Assembly (NCBI GenBank): GCA_041740355.1
Contig: JBGSMD010000009.1
Coordinates: 89,060-153,059 of the forward strand
Length of the DNA: 64,000 nucleotides
From: Bdellovibrionota bacterium
GTDB lineage: Bacteria; Bdellovibrionota_C; UBA2361; CALJRW01
Direction of reading: 5' to 3'
Shown here one piece after another: positions 550 to 20,444 of the stretch; the first letter of the stretch is position 1, and every line of letters starts with the position of its first letter. The notes under the pieces were generated by a model. It was given only the letters and a program-made list of their open reading frames with translations, had not been told where the DNA came from and did no database searches. Position numbers and translations under genes: made by a program.

Positions 550-3500
550 TTAATCACTTTTGATTTGATCAAATTCTGTTTGAAGAACTAAATCACCAGT
601 ATAAATACCTTCGGAAACTAACAAATGATTATCCACCTCTGAAACTGAAATCTCAGATAGGGTAAAGTTAATCACATTTTGACCTACAACAACAGGTAAT
701 AATTCCTGTGAACTAACAGCAATCCAAGTTCCATCAGCTTTTTTAACTTCATCGCCTGGCTTAACTTCGATCGCACGTTTTAAGCCTGCTTTAGTTAAGA
801 CAACGTGTTTCTGACTGATCTTAATTTTTTCCACACCATAAGTTAACTGAACCAAGGCTTCTGTTTCAGGTCCTTCTACTACTTTTAATACCTCTAATTT
901 TTGACCTGGGGCTCCAAGTAAATAATCACCAACTTTAACATTTTCAACAAGTACTTCTTGATTGTTAGCTAAAGTTACTTTTGTCCCTGGAGGGAAACAT
1001 CCATCAGATCCCCGATTACAAGCACATGTCCAGCAGGCATTCGGATCGGCTGACAGTTTAGTACCTGTGTAATCAGTCTGACCACCATTAGCATCAGTTA
1101 CAATAACATTACCATTAACGTCGACTCGGGTTACCCCTTGGTTAAGATTTGTATTGTTATAGAACAGATCAGCAATACCCTTATAGTTAGTAAAGTTAAA
1201 TGCTGAATCAACCCCGTCACCCTTCACACAAACTATTTTTTTAGGATCACAATAATCATTATAACGATATCGACCTCGATCTACTTGAGTAGGAACAGGA
1301 ACATTATCACAAACGTTAACAACATCACATGTAGAAGAACATCCTGAGCCAGCTACACCATTATTAACTCCAAGGTCACATTTCTCTCCAAGTTCAGAAC
1401 TTACAATACCATCTCCACAATATTTCGTGATCTCACATTCTGTATTACAAATTTGCTTCGTTGGACTTGCTTGAGATCCAGGAATTAAATCAAAATCAGT
1501 TCCATCGCAAAGTTCATTCTCATCCCTTATTCCATCACCACAATAAGGTACCTCTTCACATGTTACTGAACATCGAGAATTTGGTGTGCCATTACTTGCA
1601 CCAAGATCACATTTTTCCCCTAGTTCCGGACTCAAGATACCATCTCCACAATATGGATTAATGGTACATTCATTATTACAAACTTGATTTGTCAGACTTA
1701 TCTGTACTCCTTGATCTAAATAAAAGTCATCTCCATCACAAAGCTCACCTTCGTTACGAAATCCATCTCCACAGTATGGAGGAAATTCAACTCGGCAAAA
1801 TTCATTACAGGTTACCTTAGTAGGATCTACATTTAATGGGAAGTTAAGATCATCAGCGAAATCGCTGCCATCACATTCCTCATAAACTGGACAGCCAATA
1901 GCCTGACATGTTGGTTGATCTTTAGGTATGCCATTTACAATTCCATCTCCGCAGTATGGAGTCATTTCACAGTTCAGTGAACATCTAGAACCTAGTGTCC
2001 CATTTTTTACACCAAGGTCACATAGTTCTCCAAGTTCTGGACTGAAAATTCCGTCTCCACAATATAAGTTTACTTCACAAATGGAATTACATAATTGATC
2101 GGTAGTACTAACTTGAAGACCTTCAGCTAAATCAAAGTCATCACCATCACAAAGCTCGCCTTCACTCCGAATACCATCTCCACAATATGGCTCATCTTCA
2201 CAGGTTAAGGAACATCTAGAACCAGGAGCACCGTTATTTTCTCCAAGATCACATTTTTCCCCTAATTCAAGATTTAGAATACCATCGCCACAATATGGAT
2301 TAATCCTACATTCTTCATTACAGACTTGATTGGCCAGACTGCTTTGAACTCCCGGATCTAAATTAAAGTCATCTCCATCACAAAGTTCCCCTTCATTTCG
2401 AATATCATCACCACAATATGGTGGAAATTCTACTCGACAATAATCATTACAAGTTACTTTAGTGCGGTCAACATTTAATGGGTAATTAATATCATCCGAA
2501 AAATCATTGCCATCACATTCTTCATAAACTGGACACCCAATTGCCTGGCAGGTCAGATCATCTTTAGAAACTCCATTAACAATTCCATCACCACAATACG
2601 GCTTAACTGTTACTTCACAGCTAGCGGAACAGGTTAGATTATTAAGCGGAATGTTATTAGGATTAGCATAGCCACTGAAATCATTTCCATCACAAATTTC
2701 ACCAGCAGTTACGACTCCATCACCACAATAATCCTCTACAATGACAGTACAATCATCCCTACATGTTAAGGCATCCTGAGGGATATCCGCTTTATCAGGA
2801 TTAAGTTCAAAGTAAACTGAAAAATCTTCACCATCGCATTCTTCGGTATCTGTGCAATAGCCCCAATCTTCTTCGAAGTTATCAACACAAAATGCTCGCT
2901 TCGCTTCTCCATCCCCACAATAAGGTCGGACATGAACATTACAACTTCCTGTACAAATTAAATTTGCTAGGGGAATATTATTTGGATTGGCATAATTACC
3001 AAAATTTGTACCTTCGCAGATTTCATTGTCTGCTAATTGTCCATCTCCACAATATGGATCAATCTGACATTCGTTGGAACATTTTGCATTAGGATGAGTT
3101 ACTCCACCAAGATCTGTTAAATCACATTCTTCAACTCCTGCCTGAATTTCACCATCACCACAATAGGTACATTTAAATCCATTTGCTCGGCAGTTTGGAA
3201 CATAACTTGCTTGACCAACTTTAATTCCATAATCACAATTCTCATTGTTAGTTTCATCTAAAAATCCATCGCCACAAACAACTACTTTGCAATTGTTGCG
3301 ACATGTCTTGCCAGCTGGAGTGTCAGTTCCATCACATTCTTCTAAGGGATTATTAACATCGTTATCTCCGCACTTAGTGCAATCCTCTCGACATCCAGTT
3401 TTAGTTTGAGGATCATTATAATCACAAGTTTCGCCTTTTGGTAAATCTATTTCTTGTGTCCAAACTCCATCACCGCAATAAGGAAGTCGGCAATCGGCAC

Positions 3501-3777
3501 GGCAATTATCCGTTAAGATCTTATTGCCATCATCACATTCTTCATCAAGTAAAATTAATCCATCACCGCAATATGAACAGGTCAGACATTCACAGTTTTT
3601 ACAGCCACAAACATTAGGATCAGAAATGACTGCCGCAACAGAATTTGGATAGGCACTGCAATCTAGGTTTGAGATAACAGAATCTTGTGCGACTGTAAAT
3701 GTTGGAATACTTGCTAGTATGAACAGGCTACAAAGTAACCTCACACAAAGAATAGAGAAAATTTTCGAGTTGGACAT
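550..3777 (-). CDS. Secreted myxococcal-type Cys-rich repeat (DUF4215-like) protein with C-terminal Hint domain
   Basis: Signal peptide; many YCGDG...ExCD repeats; Hint begins at G|CFPPGTKV (Cys927, nt 999), with SQKH block B and ...NHLLVSEGIYTGD end. Confidence 0.88.
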   Translation of the reverse strand: MSNSKIFSILCVRLLCSLFILASIPTFTVAQDSVISNLDCSAYPNSVAAVISDPNVCGCKNCECLTCSYCGDGLILLDEECDDGNKILTDNCRADCRLPYCGDGVWTQEIDLPKGETCDYNDPQTKTGCREDCTKCGDNDVNNPLEECDGTDTPAGKTCRNNCKVVVCGDGFLDETNNENCDYGIKVGQASYVPNCRANGFKCTYCGDGEIQAGVEECDLTDLGGVTHPNAKCSNECQIDPYCGDGQLADNEICEGTNFGNYANPNNIPLANLICTGSCNVHVRPYCGDGEAKRAFCVDNFEEDWGYCTDTEECDGEDFSVYFELNPDKADIPQDALTCRDDCTVIVEDYCGDGVVTAGEICDGNDFSGYANPNNIPLNNLTCSASCEVTVKPYCGDGIVNGVSKDDLTCQAIGCPVYEECDGNDFSDDINYPLNVDRTKVTCNDYCRVEFPPYCGDDIRNEGELCDGDDFNLDPGVQSSLANQVCNEECRINPYCGDGILNLELGEKCDLGENNGAPGSRCSLTCEDEPYCGDGIRSEGELCDGDDFDLAEGLQVSTTDQLCNSICEVNLYCGDGIFSPELGELCDLGVKNGTLGSRCSLNCEMTPYCGDGIVNGIPKDQPTCQAIGCPVYEECDGSDFADDLNFPLNVDPTKVTCNEFCRVEFPPYCGDGFRNEGELCDGDDFYLDQGVQISLTNQVCNNECTINPYCGDGILSPELGEKCDLGASNGTPNSRCSVTCEEVPYCGDGIRDENELCDGTDFDLIPGSQASPTKQICNTECEITKYCGDGIVSSELGEKCDLGVNNGVAGSGCSSTCDVVNVCDNVPVPTQVDRGRYRYNDYCDPKKIVCVKGDGVDSAFNFTNYKGIADLFYNNTNLNQGVTRVDVNGNVIVTDANGGQTDYTGTKLSADPNACWTCACNRGSDGCFPPGTKVTLANNQEVLVENVKVGDYLLGAPGQKLEVLKVVEGPETEALVQLTYGVEKIKISQKHVVLTKAGLKRAIEVKPGDEVKKADGTWIAVSSQELLPVVVGQNVINFTLSEISVSEVDNHLLVSEGIYTGDLVLQTEFDQIKSD
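1318..2601 (-). repeat. Intragenic tandem super-repeat, 2 x 642 nt (214 aa)
   Basis: TCQAIGCPVYEECDG blocks recur 642 nt apart (tcataaactggaca at 1880 and 2522); units 1960-2601 and 1318-1959. Confidence 0.9.
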
Positions 3778-4071: not shown

Positions 4072-4761
4072 TTACTCCGTCGCTATTTCTTCTTCTATTA
4101 CTTCTGGATCCAGCGTAATAACAGGTTCAACTTGAACAGCTACTGGCTGATTAATAATTTCCATTGCAGTTAAATCGCCAGTGACAATCCCATTTGATAA
4201 CAACATGTGATTTTCAAGCTGGTCATCCCCTTCTAGCCTAATATTAAAAACTTTCTGCTTAGCTTTCACTGGTAAATACTGTACTTTTGATACTTCAGCT
4301 TTCGTTCCATTAAGATTAGCCAAGTGACCTCGTTTAACATCTCTAGCAGGAATAGTTCCTTCGTCAGTTTTAACTGGATGGGTCTCCGTAACTTTGACTG
4401 TTTTATTACCAACAGTAATTACAACAATCGGTTCAGATTCAAAAGACTCCAGAACATTAACTACTTTAGCTATTTTTCCACTGACAGGATTTATCACTTG
4501 ATCTCCAACTTGGATATCTTTAATTGCTTTCTCCAGTCCATCTCCCATCAGGATTTTGGTATCTGGCACAAAACAACTTGGCAATGCTTGTGGTGAGCCT
4601 TGTTGCGAGCTTGCCGAACCCTGTGGTGAGCCCTGTGGTGAGCTTGTCGAACCCACTGTCGAACCACCACTGCCTTCCGCAACCAACAAAATTGGAATAC
4701 TAATTAATAACAAAGTATAAATTAGGCTTTTAGATAAATTGGCAATTTGAGATAGAAACAT
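4072..4761 (-). CDS. Secreted short S/G/Q-rich peptide fused to a Hint domain
   Basis: Signal peptide, SPQG repeats, then S|CFVPDTKILM (Cys63), TETH block B, ENHMLLSNGIVTGD end, acidic tail. Confidence 0.88.
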   Translation of the reverse strand: MFLSQIANLSKSLIYTLLLISIPILLVAEGSGGSTVGSTSSPQGSPQGSASSQQGSPQALPSCFVPDTKILMGDGLEKAIKDIQVGDQVINPVSGKIAKVVNVLESFESEPIVVITVGNKTVKVTETHPVKTDEGTIPARDVKRGHLANLNGTKAEVSKVQYLPVKAKQKVFNIRLEGDDQLENHMLLSNGIVTGDLTAMEIINQPVAVQVEPVITLDPEVIEEEIATE

Positions 4762-7961: not shown

Positions 7962-8411
7962 TTATTTAGTGCTGAGAGTTTTGCACATTTCCCAATGTGG
8001 GATTGAAACTTCCAAAAAGCATTCCCCATGTTTCGTATAACCTAGTAATTGATAAAACTTAAGTGCTGTATCTCTGGCATGAAGAATCATTTGGGTATAC
8101 TCACGTTCTTCAGCAAACTGTTCTGAGTATTTAACTAAGGCTCGACCAATTCCTTTTCCCTGCAAAGTACTCACTACAGCTACTTGTCGCATTTGGATTT
8201 GAGTACTTGTAAGCGGACGTAAAACCAAACAACCTAATAACTTATTTTCTAAATAACATCCCAAATGAAAAGAATTCGATTCATTAGATAATTCTTCACT
8301 AGAAAAATTAAGTCCAAGCGGTTGGCGTAAAATGGTATCACGCAATTGAACAGTTAACTGATAGGCCTCTGATCCATAAGGAATTATCTGAAATGAATAC
8401 TGTTCGGTCAT
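7962..8411 (-). CDS. GNAT acetyltransferase (ElaA/YjcF-like)
   Basis: RQVAV...QGKGIG, HAR..A..FY..LG. Confidence 0.88.
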   Translation of the reverse strand: MTEQYSFQIIPYGSEAYQLTVQLRDTILRQPLGLNFSSEELSNESNSFHLGCYLENKLLGCLVLRPLTSTQIQMRQVAVVSTLQGKGIGRALVKYSEQFAEEREYTQMILHARDTALKFYQLLGYTKHGECFLEVSIPHWEMCKTLSTK

Positions 8412-8435: not shown

Positions 8436-9722
8436 CTAAGATAATTCTAATATCTTTCTTAACAGCTCACTATTGTGCGAATGCCCAGTCATGTTAGCTG
8501 TAATCTTACCCACGATAGGTCGACCAAGAAGATAAATATCTCCGATCATATCTAGAATTTTATGTCGCACGGGCTCATCAGGGAAACGAAGCTCCGAGTT
8601 GATCACGCCATCTTCGCCAATCAACACAAAATTATTAAATCTTCCACCCTGCGCTAACCCTTGTTTCTGAAGATAATCAATATCTTTAACAAAGCCAAAA
8701 GTTCGACAGCTAGCAATTTCCCTTTGATAACTTTCAAAGTTATCCATTTTAAAAATATAATGTTGCTCCCCAATTGGTTGTTGATAATTGAGCGTGTAGT
8801 CAATAATTAATTCTTCTGCTGGCTCTAATCGTATAAAAGCGTCCCCTTTTCGCACTTCTATAGTTTGAGTGACCATTAATTCGGCAATACTTGCTGACTG
8901 TTCTTTAATGCCTACTTCTTGAAACATTTTACAGAATTCAATTGCGGAGCCATCCATAACTGGAACTTCCTCATTACACTTAATTAATAAGTTAGTAATT
9001 CCGGCTGCGTGGAGTGCCGACATTAAATGCTCAATAGTTGACACTTGAGAGTCGGCATTTTTAATTGTCGTAGCGTATCCAGTAGTGCTGACATAGTTAA
9101 CGTGCGCCGGAACAGCCTGCTTACTCCCAGGTCCAGCAAAGTGAATGCCTGAATTTTCTGGTAGTGGTTCCAAAATTAAACCTGATTTGCGACCACTGTG
9201 AACTCCCACTCCATAAAGAATGCTACTGCCTGCTAAAGTTTTCTGAACTCTTTCTTTGCCAACAAAAAAATCATTTTTAAAAACATCACTTGTAATTTGG
9301 CAAGTTTGCAAAGATAGGCTTTCAATTTCAGGAAGATGAACTGAAGAATTACTCTTACTTGTCAAAGCTTTATTAACAACTTGTTGAATAACTAGTAAGT
9401 CTAGGGGCTTTTCAATAAAATCAATGGCTCCTAACTGCGTCGCTTTTACTGCTGTGGAAATAGTAGCGTGGCCACTAATCATTACCACTGGCAAAAGACT
9501 ATCAAGGCTACGAATCTTTTCTAAAGTCTCCATTCCATCCATCCCTGGCAACCAAATATCCAAGAATACTAGTGCCGGAGATTTTTCTTTAATAATTTCA
9601 AGCGCCTGATTGCCATTACTGGCATGACAACAAATCATGCCAAGATCTTCTAGGACATGACTTAAAGTCTCACAAATACTTTTCTCGTCATCGACAATTA
9701 AAGCTAAATTATTGTTGTTCAT
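8436..9722 (-). CDS. lpxC: Receiver domain-LpxC fusion (UDP-3-O-acyl-GlcNAc deacetylase)
   Basis: REC: IVDDE, FLDIWLPGMDG, ISGH, FIEKP. LpxC: GVGVHSG, TIEHLMSAL, EVPVMDGSA, RHKILDMIGD, TGH. ATG at 9722 preferred over TTG at 9734. Confidence 0.93.
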   Translation of the reverse strand: MNNNNLALIVDDEKSICETLSHVLEDLGMICCHASNGNQALEIIKEKSPALVFLDIWLPGMDGMETLEKIRSLDSLLPVVMISGHATISTAVKATQLGAIDFIEKPLDLLVIQQVVNKALTSKSNSSVHLPEIESLSLQTCQITSDVFKNDFFVGKERVQKTLAGSSILYGVGVHSGRKSGLILEPLPENSGIHFAGPGSKQAVPAHVNYVSTTGYATTIKNADSQVSTIEHLMSALHAAGITNLLIKCNEEVPVMDGSAIEFCKMFQEVGIKEQSASIAELMVTQTIEVRKGDAFIRLEPAEELIIDYTLNYQQPIGEQHYIFKMDNFESYQREIASCRTFGFVKDIDYLQKQGLAQGGRFNNFVLIGEDGVINSELRFPDEPVRHKILDMIGDIYLLGRPIVGKITANMTGHSHNSELLRKILELS

Positions 9723-9786
9723 AGTAAATTTCAAAAATTACTTTATTAATATAGTAATTTACGGCGAGTGTGAATATTAGAGCCTT

Positions 9787-9889: not shown

Positions 9890-11212
9890 TTACTTCAGGT
9901 CACCAGTAAACACGCGAATAGTTTCTGCCGTGTTAGAAAAAAGTGTCGCCTCACGTCCGGGCCCAACACTAACTAAAGAAACCGGACAAGCAATAATCTC
10001 ACTAACTGTTGCCAAGTAAAGTTTTACCGAGGCTGGTAGCTGATGCCATTTAGTAATTTTCGAAATATCTTCTTCCCAACCTGTGAGTTCAATATATTCA
10101 GGTGTTACTAATGCTAGATCAGCTGCGAGGGATGGAACATCATCTAATTTATGCCCATCTAAATGATAATTAATACAAACTTTAATTTTTTCCATTCCTG
10201 AAAGCACATCAAGCTTTGTCATGGCCAGAGTTTCAATTCCATTTAAACGAACAGCTCGCTTTAAAGCAAATGTATCTAACCAACCACATCGTCTTGGACG
10301 TCCAGTAACTGTTCCAAACTCATGTCCTTTTTGGCGAAGATCTTCACCAGCCTGACCGTGTAGTTCGGTCGGAAATGGACCTTCCCCTACACGCGTAGAA
10401 TAGGCTTTCACTACTCCGAGGATAGTATCAATTGCTTTTGGTCCAACTCCACAACCTATTGTTACAGCACCGGCAATAGTATTAGAAGAAGTAACGTATG
10501 GCACTGTGCCGTGAATTTGATCAAGTAAAGTTCCTTGTGCCCCTTCAAAGACGATTTTTTGTTGATTTTTAATGGCATGATCTAAAATTAAACTTACGTT
10601 CCCAATGAATGGGCAAAGTTCTTTTGCTGCTAACTCAATATCGCTCCAAATTTTTTCAAAACTAATTTCTTCAGGGTAGTCTAAAACGTGTTTCAATGTT
10701 TTGTTAATCTTGATAACTTTTTCTTTAATTCGGGGTTTTAAATCATTTAACTTAAACAATTCAGCTAAACGAACACCGGAACGATCTACACGATCTTCAT
10801 AGCAAGGACCAATCCCTTTGCCTGTAGTTCCAATTTTTTGATCTCCACGACTAATCTCGCGAGCCAAATCTAGTACTCGATGGTAGTCAAGGATTAAATG
10901 TGAATCACGATCAAGTACCAATCTCTCAGGATTAATTTTGTAACCTGCAGCTTGCAGTCCAGTAACTTCCCAGGTAAAGATTTTTGGATCTACAACGCAC
11001 CCAGCTCCAATCAAGCAACAACAGTTGTCTCGCAAAATACCCGATGGGATTAAATTTAATTTGGTTGTCTTTCCTTCCACGACAATAGTGTGTCCGGCAT
11101 TATTTCCACCATGAAAACGAACTACGAAATCGGCCGCCGAAGTTAAGTAATCAACAAGTTTACCTTTACCTTCATCACCCCACTGACATCCAACAACAAC
11201 TAGTGAAGACAT
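9890..11212 (-). CDS. purA: Adenylosuccinate synthetase
   Basis: QWGDEGKGK, GGNNAGHT, EGAQG, TVTGRPRRCGW. Confidence 0.97.
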   Translation of the reverse strand: MSSLVVVGCQWGDEGKGKLVDYLTSAADFVVRFHGGNNAGHTIVVEGKTTKLNLIPSGILRDNCCCLIGAGCVVDPKIFTWEVTGLQAAGYKINPERLVLDRDSHLILDYHRVLDLAREISRGDQKIGTTGKGIGPCYEDRVDRSGVRLAELFKLNDLKPRIKEKVIKINKTLKHVLDYPEEISFEKIWSDIELAAKELCPFIGNVSLILDHAIKNQQKIVFEGAQGTLLDQIHGTVPYVTSSNTIAGAVTIGCGVGPKAIDTILGVVKAYSTRVGEGPFPTELHGQAGEDLRQKGHEFGTVTGRPRRCGWLDTFALKRAVRLNGIETLAMTKLDVLSGMEKIKVCINYHLDGHKLDDVPSLAADLALVTPEYIELTGWEEDISKITKWHQLPASVKLYLATVSEIIACPVSLVSVGPGREATLFSNTAETIRVFTGDLK

Positions 11213-18828: not shown

Positions 18829-19235
18829 ACACCTCTATAATTCTCTCTTCGTAGTCGACCAAGTTTACACAATAACAAGTTGTAAAAATATTGCAGTTAA
18901 CTTTAGAATCAAAGCACCACAAACCTTGAAGAGGTGAAATATATAACAAATATAGAGAATTAATTCAAATCAAAATCAAATTAAACTAGAGTCTTAATTT
19001 TGAGCTTTAAAACGCTTAACGTAGTTATTTCCCTAGAATATAGTGCAATCCATAATCCTGGGAAGAAAAAGTAGGAATTTTAATACTTTTACCTTTCAAT
19101 GTTAAAGAAAATTTGGTTTAAAAATTACAATTTTATTGAATAAAATTGATTAAGAAATTAGCTAATGATAAGTTGTTAACCTTACAAAGTTCAGATTCTG
19201 TTGACTTTTCCAAATTCCAACTTGAGATTACAAAT

Positions 19236-20444
19236 ATGATTAATCGAATAACCTCCCAAGTACTATTATCTTTACTGATCACAATACTAAGTGTTTTTAG
19301 TTGTTATGCAGACCTTCCAGAAAGTTGCCTCGGCGATTGCCCAGTTGAAAACCTATGTGGCAATCAACAAGTAGACCCAGGGGAAGAATGTGATTCAACC
19401 GAAGGCTGTAATTACAATTGCCAATATGCAGTCTGCGGAAACGGTATCGTGGAAGAAGGTTCTGGTGAGCAATGTGACAATGGAGAAACAGATTTAAATT
19501 GTTTAGATGAAGAATCTAATTGTAACTTTATGCAAAATCTTCGAATTCAAGGTGGTCAAGAGTTAGTCACCATTTGTAACGATAGTTGCTTACTTCAAAC
19601 CTGCGGAAATGAAATCATTGAGGGTGATGAACAATGTGATTTCGGTGATACAGAAGATGGAGATGGTTGTAGCGCCTCTTGTCGCCTTGAGGAATGCGGA
19701 AATGAAATCATTGAGGGTGATGAACAATGTGATTTCGGTGATACGGAAATTGGAGATGGTTGTAGCGCCTCCTGTCGCTTTGAGGAATGTGGCAATAGTA
19801 TCCTTGACCCTGGTGAGCAATGCGATGAGGGTAATCCATCTTCTAATGATGGCTGTAGCAATACCTGTATAATTGAAACTGAATGCGTTGGAAATAATTG
19901 TGGCCCCCAAGCTGAAGTATTTGATTGTCTTGATAAAGAAGGTCAGCTCAATAAGCTTGACCGATGTCAGGTCTGTGGCGGAGATGGTCAAAGTTGTCTA
20001 GCATGCGTGGAAAGCAGTAACGTAGAAGATCAACTAAGAATGGATGGAGCTTCAAAAAGAATGGCTGGACTAATAATTGGTCTAAATAAAAAATTACTAA
20101 AACTTGAGATCTCTAATCAATTAAAAAGAAACCTACTTAATTCTAATAATCAAGTTAAGGAACTTTACTTAACTAGTTGGACATTAGCTTGGTCACTGCC
20201 ACTTGTTACAAAAGCATGCAACACGGTGTTTTGTACAACAGCAGATCTTTCGCCCCTGGTAGTATTATACGCCGAGAAGCTGGCGGAAATAGAAGCTGAA
20301 GCTAGAAAATCGGCTCGAATCCTAAAACGCTTAACAGGCAATAAAAATTCAGCAAAACAATTTTTGGAGAAAATTACAGAACAGTATAATTCTGGAATTG
20401 AGACATCAGGTCTTGTGACTACATCAACAAGCGTTTGCTCATAA
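19236..20444 (+). CDS. Secreted Cys-rich repeat (DUF4215-like) protein with helical C-terminal domain
   Basis: Signal peptide from ATG 19236; CGN...EQCDxG...DGCS..C repeats; DRCQVCGGDGQSC motif. Confidence 0.85.
   Translation: MINRITSQVLLSLLITILSVFSCYADLPESCLGDCPVENLCGNQQVDPGEECDSTEGCNYNCQYAVCGNGIVEEGSGEQCDNGETDLNCLDEESNCNFMQNLRIQGGQELVTICNDSCLLQTCGNEIIEGDEQCDFGDTEDGDGCSASCRLEECGNEIIEGDEQCDFGDTEIGDGCSASCRFEECGNSILDPGEQCDEGNPSSNDGCSNTCIIETECVGNNCGPQAEVFDCLDKEGQLNKLDRCQVCGGDGQSCLACVESSNVEDQLRMDGASKRMAGLIIGLNKKLLKLEISNQLKRNLLNSNNQVKELYLTSWTLAWSLPLVTKACNTVFCTTADLSPLVVLYAEKLAEIEAEARKSARILKRLTGNKNSAKQFLEKITEQYNSGIETSGLVTTSTSVCS
19602..19787 (+). repeat. Near-identical 93-nt tandem duplication
   Basis: tgcggaaatgaaatcattgagggtgatgaacaatgtgatttcggtgatac... 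occurs twice. Confidence 0.9.

Follow-up and report, generated by a model that had tools for sequence, protein, structure and literature searches.

The stretch of DNA analysed here (64,000 nucleotides of a Bdellovibrionota genome, referred to as the window) carries on its minus strand a gene in which a two-component receiver domain is joined to LpxC, the enzyme of the flux-controlling, committed step of lipopolysaccharide/lipid A synthesis and a leading antibiotic target. We call this gene REC-LpxC. Including its stop codon it occupies positions 8436..9734 and encodes 432 amino acids (aa) when read from a TTG at 9734. An ATG at 9722 is likely the true start and gives 428 aa, which is also the length of the database entry and of a homolog from the same genus. 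Residue numbers refer to the 432-aa form unless marked as 428-aa numbering, which starts four residues later. The frame is uninterrupted, as stated in an initial annotation of this DNA that described one continuous open reading frame (ORF) with both domains over the range given by the ATG start. No strand was mentioned there; the translation must be that of the reverse strand, because the plus-strand frame of the same range is full of stops.

The N-terminal part is a receiver (REC) domain at 9375..9701 on the minus strand (residues 12-120, Pfam Response_reg). The match to PF00072 covers residues 8-116 in 428-aa numbering, with an E-value of 1.2e-29 and a score of 103.2 bits against a cut-off of 30.2. 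The phospho-switch set consists of D15/D16 (IVDDE), D59 (FLDIW), S87 (ISGH), F106 and K109 (EKP), which includes each of the receiver motifs named in the initial annotation (DD, FLDIW, ISGH and EKP). Translation and alignment predict D59 in FLDIW, with its codon at 9558..9560 on the minus strand, as the phosphorylation site. We aligned 143 fusions, 120 of them database proteins and 23 from genomic loci, with 41-93% identity to the REC-LpxC studied here. Positions D15, D59, W61, S87, G88, F106, K109 and P110 are invariant in all 143, while position 16 is an aspartate in 142 and a glutamate in one. With its complete switch set the receiver is predicted to be phosphorylatable.

The best receiver-only match in NCBIfam is NtrX (NF051870, an equivalog model) at 111.6 bits against a cut-off of 600, and the nearest solved sequence is the Brucella NtrX receiver (4d6x/5m7n), so that the description of the receiver as NtrX-like holds for both comparisons. 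The NtrX layout consists of REC, AAA+ and a Fis-type helix-turn-helix (HTH); here the receiver stands without AAA+ or HTH. By its domain content REC-LpxC is no NtrX, and only its receiver can be assigned to the NtrX/NtrC type.

A linker of about 37 residues follows (9246..9356, minus strand, residues 127-163), close to the length of some 40 aa given originally. Its first half is variable and predicted to be disordered, with a predicted local distance difference test (pLDDT) score from AlphaFold2 below 50 at residues 131-143. The final 20 or so residues (VFKNDFFVGKERV) are semi-conserved and lead into strand 1 of LpxC, with pLDDT values of 70-83 after residue 143.

The deacetylase domain (8448..9245, minus strand, residues 164-429, Pfam LpxC) is matched by PF03331 at residues 160-425 in 428-aa numbering and over positions 1-267 of the 268 in the profile (E-value 6.7e-89, 298.4 bits against a cut-off of 27). 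The NCBIfam lpxC equivalog TIGR00325 matches with 265.2 bits (cut-off 187.25). The zinc ligands H236, H391 and D395 and the catalytic residues E235 and H418 lie in the motifs IEHL (E235/H236), HKILD (H391/K392/D395) and GHSHN (H418); the EH, HKILD and catalytic His features noted earlier are thus all present. Among the 143 fusions E235, H236, T345, H391, K392, D395, D399, H418 and N421 are invariant. H236, H391, D395, E235 and H418 align with zinc-ligand and catalytic positions of solved LpxC sequences, which we take to be H79, H238 and D242 (zinc) and E78/H265 (catalytic) in the E. coli enzyme.

The LpxC part aligns over its full length to LpxC sequences in the PDB (E-value about 1e-51). An AlphaFold2 model of REC-LpxC built from 78 sequences has a pLDDT of 87.1 and a predicted template modelling (TM) score of 0.83, and falls below a pLDDT of 50 at residues 1-5 and 131-143 only. 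Foldseek superposes the LpxC part on solved LpxC with target-normalised TM-scores of 0.84-0.96 over about 275 columns, and with root-mean-square deviations of 1.4-2.5 A for almost all chains among those listed; model and superposition agree with the two-domain LpxC fold. No solved chain among the Foldseek matches covers both REC and LpxC. Judged from its sequence, the LpxC domain appears catalytically complete. The protein ends three residues past this domain, near E. coli residue 279, and therefore has no C-terminal tail of the E. coli type.

Spread of the fusion and the lipid A pathway

The genome (3.27 Mb in 74 contigs, 97.27% complete, 36% G+C) contains a single LpxC match, which is the REC-LpxC gene. 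Whether this is the sole lpxC had been raised as a check, and at the given completeness it is. Since kdtA, lpxK and lpxB are also encoded, lipid A is probably made, and the sole copy together with these three genes indirectly supports deacetylase activity of REC-LpxC on UDP-3-O-acyl-GlcNAc. The N-terminal domain of LpxD (PF04613) had no match in the genome, this being the only way in which lpxA and lpxD were searched.

A second fusion of a lipid A enzyme is present in the genome outside the window, adjoining DUF374, lpxK and kdtA. This ORF of 981 aa (G000:C16:34998-37943, minus strand; L117:5002-7944) contains LpxB (14-357) and a full ABC exporter (ABC_membrane 424-685, ABC_tran 752-901), and looks like an LpxB-MsbA fusion.

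REC-LpxC itself is widespread. In a set of this genome and 40 relatives, one match across both domains is found in 35 of the 41. G005 has both parts in one frame of 494 aa, G034 has a weak receiver match only, and the rest show pieces at contig ends. The taxonomic spread of the Response_reg and LpxC combination, another check proposed in the initial annotation, extends over 104 of 124 species genomes of the phylum (sampled as one class), each with a single match spanning both domains, and into other phyla. In 103 genomes the match runs from residue 12 or lower to 427 or higher with an identity of 46-100%, and in G041 there is one at 33%. Partial matches are found in 16 of the 124, mostly at contig ends and in a few cases as an LpxC part inside frames of 488-526 aa; the remaining four have no match at 1e-30.

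Database proteins show the same architecture: the best 120 of 6091 (E-value at most 1e-20) all carry both Pfam domains and, where named, are labelled as plain LpxC; the taxon labels on close homologs are Bdellovibrionales, Oligoflexia, Deltaproteobacteria or Dadabacteria. Among the best 150 clusters of a library at 50% identity at least 37 are fused forms, of which 18 have a single stretch of 412-461 aa, four measure 457-505 aa and 15 have two stretches (650-736 aa). Both domains occur in 17 of the 30 nearest clusters of the ESM Atlas, where the few taxon labels are Myxococcota, Binatota and Spirochaetota. A broad search for related loci returned the fusion in five of 80; the others were mostly alphaproteobacterial NtrX-type receivers, because one search pattern lay in the receiver.

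The probability that an error in assembly or gene calling, or gene decay, explains the fusion is practically negligible. The reading frame is uninterrupted, the architecture recurs in more than 100 independent assemblies of the phylum, both domains are joined in the 120 database proteins among the matches listed, as they are in at least 37 clusters (50% identity) out of the 150 best, and the catalytic and switch residues are invariant. Being an artefact or unique to this contig had been put forward as grounds for dismissing the fusion; given its presence in those assemblies it is neither.

No published description of a REC-LpxC fusion was found in a literature search that left supplementary files and non-open papers aside, which agrees with the earlier remark that no characterised example was known. 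In a recent review of LpxC control (PMC12444477), searched by word, 'receiver', 'fusion', 'fused' and 'response regulator' are absent, and in a second one (PMC13333357) these four and 'two-component' are absent. As far as sequences can tell, REC-LpxC is real and conserved, apparently functional and apparently uncharacterised.

Kinase neighbourhoods and origin of the fusion

Outside the phylum the fusion can be found directly behind a kinase gene. At L017 (genome G124) the order is ruvC-ruvA-ruvB-kinase-REC-LpxC, with a gap of 18 bp between the kinase (762 aa; HAMP, PAS, HisKA and HATPase) and a fusion 46% identical to REC-LpxC. L018 and L021 have the same order with frames broken in the assemblies, and in G124, G125 and G126 the fusion is the only LpxC. 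A tblastn search placed the end of the kinase's C-terminal half immediately before the fusion in 8 of 16 genomes from outside the phylum (G124, G125, G126, G236, G269, G164, G202 and G132).

The phylum of G124 (sampled with 151 genomes) contains fused as well as unfused forms. We counted 15 full-length fusions, 20 genomes with a match to the LpxC part only (47-57% identity, in frames of 450-837 aa) and about 110 with an unfused LpxC (35-45% identity); several of the latter have a receiver about 3 kb away that is 47-56% identical to the fusion receiver. Six loci from this phylum were examined (L107-L112). L107 and L108 share the order ruvB, unfused lpxC, NtrY-like kinase and sigma54 regulator (REC, AAA+, HTH_8). 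L109, L110 and L111 encode REC-AAA+-lid-LpxC proteins of 726-795 aa, in L110 with a kinase directly upstream, and L112 has a short fusion. By their domains the long fusions look like a whole NtrX-like regulator joined to LpxC. They are located at L109:2168-4552, L110:1652-3829 and L111:1552-3783, and an HTH-like part is seen between lid and LpxC.

The unfused regulators of L107 and L108 retain GAFTGA or GSFTGA and are thus true sigma54 activators, unlike alphaproteobacterial NtrX, which is not known to carry GAFTGA. The long fusions have retained Walker A and lost GAFTGA. Clusters of intermediate length (650, 505 and 483 aa) exist, and the long-fusion length class comprises at least 15 clusters at 50% identity. 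Ahead of the unfused lpxC genes of L107 and L108 a search for sigma54 promoters gave zero strict matches; a single relaxed match was seen in L108 at a position 11 bases into a called ORF, which is not intergenic.

These arrangements suggest an origin by reduction, starting from an lpxC gene that had an NtrY-like kinase and a sigma54 regulator as neighbours. REC-AAA+-LpxC would have formed first and REC-LpxC next, and the kinase and fusion genes would later have been separated in the present phylum. Gene orders and domain contents together make the architecture of REC-LpxC, and its descent from a regulator whose gene neighboured lpxC and that of an NtrY-type kinase, well supported. The graded series from unfused operon through long to short fusion would be a clean case of a transcription factor becoming the allosteric domain of its own target.

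Partner kinase and control of LpxC

The initial annotation reported no histidine kinase nearby, and this extends to the entire 153-kb contig C9 carrying REC-LpxC, on which searches with HisKA and HATPase_c gave zero matches. It also proposed to look for an NtrY-like kinase, and Pfam domains identify one of 739 aa on contig C6 (G000:C6:118866-121085). NtrY_N scores 30.9 bits against 23.2, and HAMP, HisKA and HATPase_c are all above their cut-offs. The protein has four hydrophobic segments (predicted to be membrane-spanning), an extracytoplasmic domain and a His-box at H520. PAS is not called by Pfam in this kinase; it is called in the orthologs of L017, L107 and L108.

The C6 kinase gene is preceded by ruvB and by a gene for a DUF4390 (PlrP-like) protein of 184 aa, which begins with a hydrophobic, signal-like segment. 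DUF4390 is the domain of PlrP, a periplasmic third component that occurs almost only beside NtrY/PlrS homologs and acts genetically as such in NtrYX-family systems; the kinase follows the DUF4390 gene as plrS follows plrP (PMC13001219). No regulator gene was found beside the kinase, and the slot of the cognate gene (ntrX/plrR) directly downstream is empty. Lying there is an ORF of 375 aa (G000:C6:117648-118775, minus strand; L095:5652-6776) whose match to Formyl_trans_N is weak and sub-threshold; the gene after it encodes an M23 peptidase.

Queries with four kinases encoded next to lpxC or the fusion in other genomes each match the C6 kinase along nearly the whole of the query (319-380 bits, 31-36% identity), and the next-best kinase of the genome reaches at most 89 bits. 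By these scores the genome has no other ortholog of the kinases found beside the fusion. Within the phylum an NtrY_N kinase is found by Pfam in 110 of the 124 genomes, with a single match in all but one. Five Pfam-negative genomes were retested with the kinase protein, which revealed an ortholog in three: full-length in G007 and G025, and shorter in G069, still beside ruvB. The other two, G041 and G043 (family f22, 80-85% complete), yielded no NtrY-like kinase by Pfam or by protein query.

We also compared receivers using a profile built from those of the fusions. Fusions score 140-188 bits, and two kinase-adjacent sigma54 regulators fall within that range (160-170 bits); an orphan sigma54 regulator of the genome studied here, on C9, scores 109 bits and all other receivers at most 86. 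In a maximum-likelihood tree of 35 receivers (118 columns) the other receivers of the genome are on one side of a branch. The orphan regulator (G000:C9:7767-9158, minus strand; L096) is located outside the window, flanked by M16 peptidase genes on one side and by a branched-chain amino acid ABC transporter on the other, and contains REC, AAA+ with GAFTGA, and HTH_8.

The C6 kinase is a probable partner of the REC-LpxC receiver; phosphotransfer from the one to the other, and an effect on LpxC, we infer. It seems fairly probable to us that REC-LpxC is a response regulator with an enzyme output, in which the kinase phosphorylates Asp59 and so tunes the activity or stability of LpxC. A cue from the envelope or the periplasm would be picked up by the kinase and passed on as phosphate to Asp59, after which the switch formed by S87, F106 and K109 would alter the conformation or surface of the receiver, or its dimer state. 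This change would raise or lower the activity of LpxC, or its stability and lifetime, and lipid A synthesis would then follow envelope status without a transcription step. That phosphorylation gives more LpxC function is a weak guess by continuity: an ancestor of the unfused type, being a sigma54 activator, can do no more than switch genes on.

Our confidence is evenly divided on a wider proposal, namely that several little-studied phyla have swapped transcriptional or proteolytic control of LpxC for a phosphorelay, formed by an NtrY kinase and its DUF4390 partner, to a built-in receiver. In this view the long REC-AAA+-LpxC forms would be living intermediates of the change.

A number of observations weigh against control through the C6 kinase. 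The branch that separates the receivers has a support of 73/87 and the backbone of the tree is poorly resolved, for which reason the sigma54 regulator on C9 is a possible, or a second, partner of the kinase. The genome has many orphan receivers (receiver matches total 19), and a second non-hybrid kinase without a neighbouring regulator (1021 aa) is encoded on C64. Kinase and fusion are never adjacent in the phylum (the kinase is upstream in 0 of 14 loci) and, where they share a contig, are at least 37 kb apart; among the 16 genomes outside the phylum, eight are without an adjacent kinase within the 1.5 kb examined. Finally, in family f22 the receiver looks intact and the NtrY-like kinase was not found. 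The f22 fusions (G041:C25:5404-6639, L113, and G043:C20, L114) are 33-36% identical and come from genomes of 1.2-1.8 Mb. Loss of the kinase with decay of the receiver was considered for this family and rejected, as its receivers keep the Asp, Ser and Lys.

Some of these points would fit a receiver that, after separation of the genes, is regulated by another donor, such as the 1021-aa kinase on C64, a hybrid kinase or acetyl phosphate. The lack of adjacency throughout the phylum and the f22 genomes, with a fusion and no NtrY-like kinase detected, argue in this direction, as do the other kinases of the genome (11 HisKA and 16 HATPase_c matches, the latter count also taking in non-kinase GHKL ATPases). 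Nonetheless we consider it rather unlikely: Pfam detects the NtrY-like kinase in 110 of 124 genomes and the protein query adds further ones, the one of this genome has no adjoining regulator, and its orthologs directly precede the fusion elsewhere. Quite improbable in our view is a phosphorylated receiver that does not act on LpxC, serving as a phosphate sink, as a tether or dimerisation module or for co-expression, while LpxC is constitutive. The fusion is kept phylum-wide and in other phyla as the sole LpxC. Moreover, a stage with a whole-regulator fusion appears to have been followed by loss of AAA+ and DNA-binding parts with REC and LpxC kept, which is difficult to account for if REC has no action on LpxC; phosphate-sink receivers, in addition, are normally single-domain proteins. 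Against these arguments stand the long linker, predicted to be disordered (pLDDT below 50 at residues 131-143), and the orphan sigma54 regulator on C9, which could be the real output of the kinase.

It is also conceivable, though unlikely, that the receiver sets the lifetime of LpxC, phosphorylation exposing or hiding a signal by which FtsH, Lon or ClpXP degrades the protein. LpxC would then still be controlled by proteolysis as in E. coli, with input from a kinase in place of LapB/YejM; the initial annotation had likewise allowed for activity or stability. Proteolysis is the best-documented control of LpxC, by FtsH/LapB/YejM in enterobacteria and by other proteolytic or LapB-linked mechanisms elsewhere (PMC12444477, PMC13333357). 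FtsH is present in the genome, whereas the N-terminal domain of YejM (DUF3413) had no match. Zn_ribbon_LapB had none either, an absence that is only moderately strong because this short model finds matches in Gram-positive control genomes too. With these markers not found, the C-terminal tail that bears the E. coli degron absent and only FtsH present, the E. coli route itself is unlikely here. The missing tail also counts against a receiver-set lifetime, and in no locus examined is an adaptor or protease gene linked to the fusion; beyond this, computation gives nothing that separates such a mechanism from allosteric control.

How does REC-LpxC relate to known systems? With the stand-alone LpxC of E. 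coli, P. aeruginosa, Y. enterocolitica and A. aeolicus it shares the full catalytic domain (about 34-36% identity to solved chains), the zinc ligands and the catalytic Glu/His; it differs by the additional N-terminal receiver and linker, and by lacking the C-terminal tail of the E. coli enzyme. CheB, PleD/WspR and RpfG, response regulators with enzymatic outputs, likewise consist of an N-terminal receiver, a linker and an enzyme domain, but there the output is a signalling or second-messenger enzyme and here it is the biosynthetic enzyme of a committed envelope step. The LpxC-FabZ bifunctional protein (NF009667) is the other known natural LpxC fusion. Its LpxC half is matched by REC-LpxC with 201.5 bits, short of the cut-off of 465, and its partner is a C-terminal pathway enzyme rather than an N-terminal signalling domain.

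The NtrY/NtrX family (Bordetella PlrP-PlrS-PlrR, and NtrYX of R. sphaeroides and C. crescentus) provides the best matches of the receiver, which are to NtrX. In comparison to NtrX, the regulated enzyme itself takes the place of the AAA+ and DNA-binding domains, so that control would be post-translational; and unlike in NtrYX, kinase and regulator genes are unlinked in this phylum. A link between this family and lpxC exists elsewhere: R. sphaeroides and C. crescentus use NtrYX to repress the transcription of lpxC (PMC12444477), and NtrYX and ChvGI account for transcriptional lpxC control in two alphaproteobacteria (PMC12444477, PMC13333357). D. vulgaris also has a two-component system devoted to lpxC (DVU2931-DVU2934, with a sigma54-type regulator; PMC3333781), where lpxC is the single mapped target of DVU2934 (PMC3333781; 10.1101/2021.11.05.467447). 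The orthologous regulator operon of S. fumaroxidans has lpxC immediately upstream (PMC3333781), an arrangement that resembles the lpxC-kinase-regulator order of L107 and L108. In the D. vulgaris system, as described, control is transcriptional and the genes are separate, unlike in REC-LpxC.

If the proposed control is real, the built-in receiver would represent a third mode of LpxC control, post-translational and signal-driven. It would also offer a simple in vitro system (one kinase and one substrate enzyme) for a signal that sets lipid A synthesis, and would tie the pleiotropic and puzzling NtrY kinase family to an ancient envelope function.

Surroundings of the gene

The upstream neighbour of REC-LpxC is purA (adenylosuccinate synthetase; 9890..11212, minus strand), at a distance of 155 bp. 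It is the final gene of a rimP-nusA-infB-rbfA-DHH-truB-purA run on the minus strand, and purA again precedes the fusion in L016, which belongs to the same family. Downstream, after 24 bp, lies a GNAT acetyltransferase gene (7962..8411, minus strand) that is possibly co-transcribed with REC-LpxC. Scans for promoters and terminators around the REC-LpxC gene did no better than shuffled sequences.

Further away in the window, two minus-strand genes encode a protein of 1075 aa with DUF4215 and Hom_end_hint (550-3777) and a protein of 229 aa with Vint/Hint, of the Hint type and intein/hedgehog-like (4072-4761). A DUF4215-repeat protein of 432 aa is encoded on the plus strand at 19146-20444.

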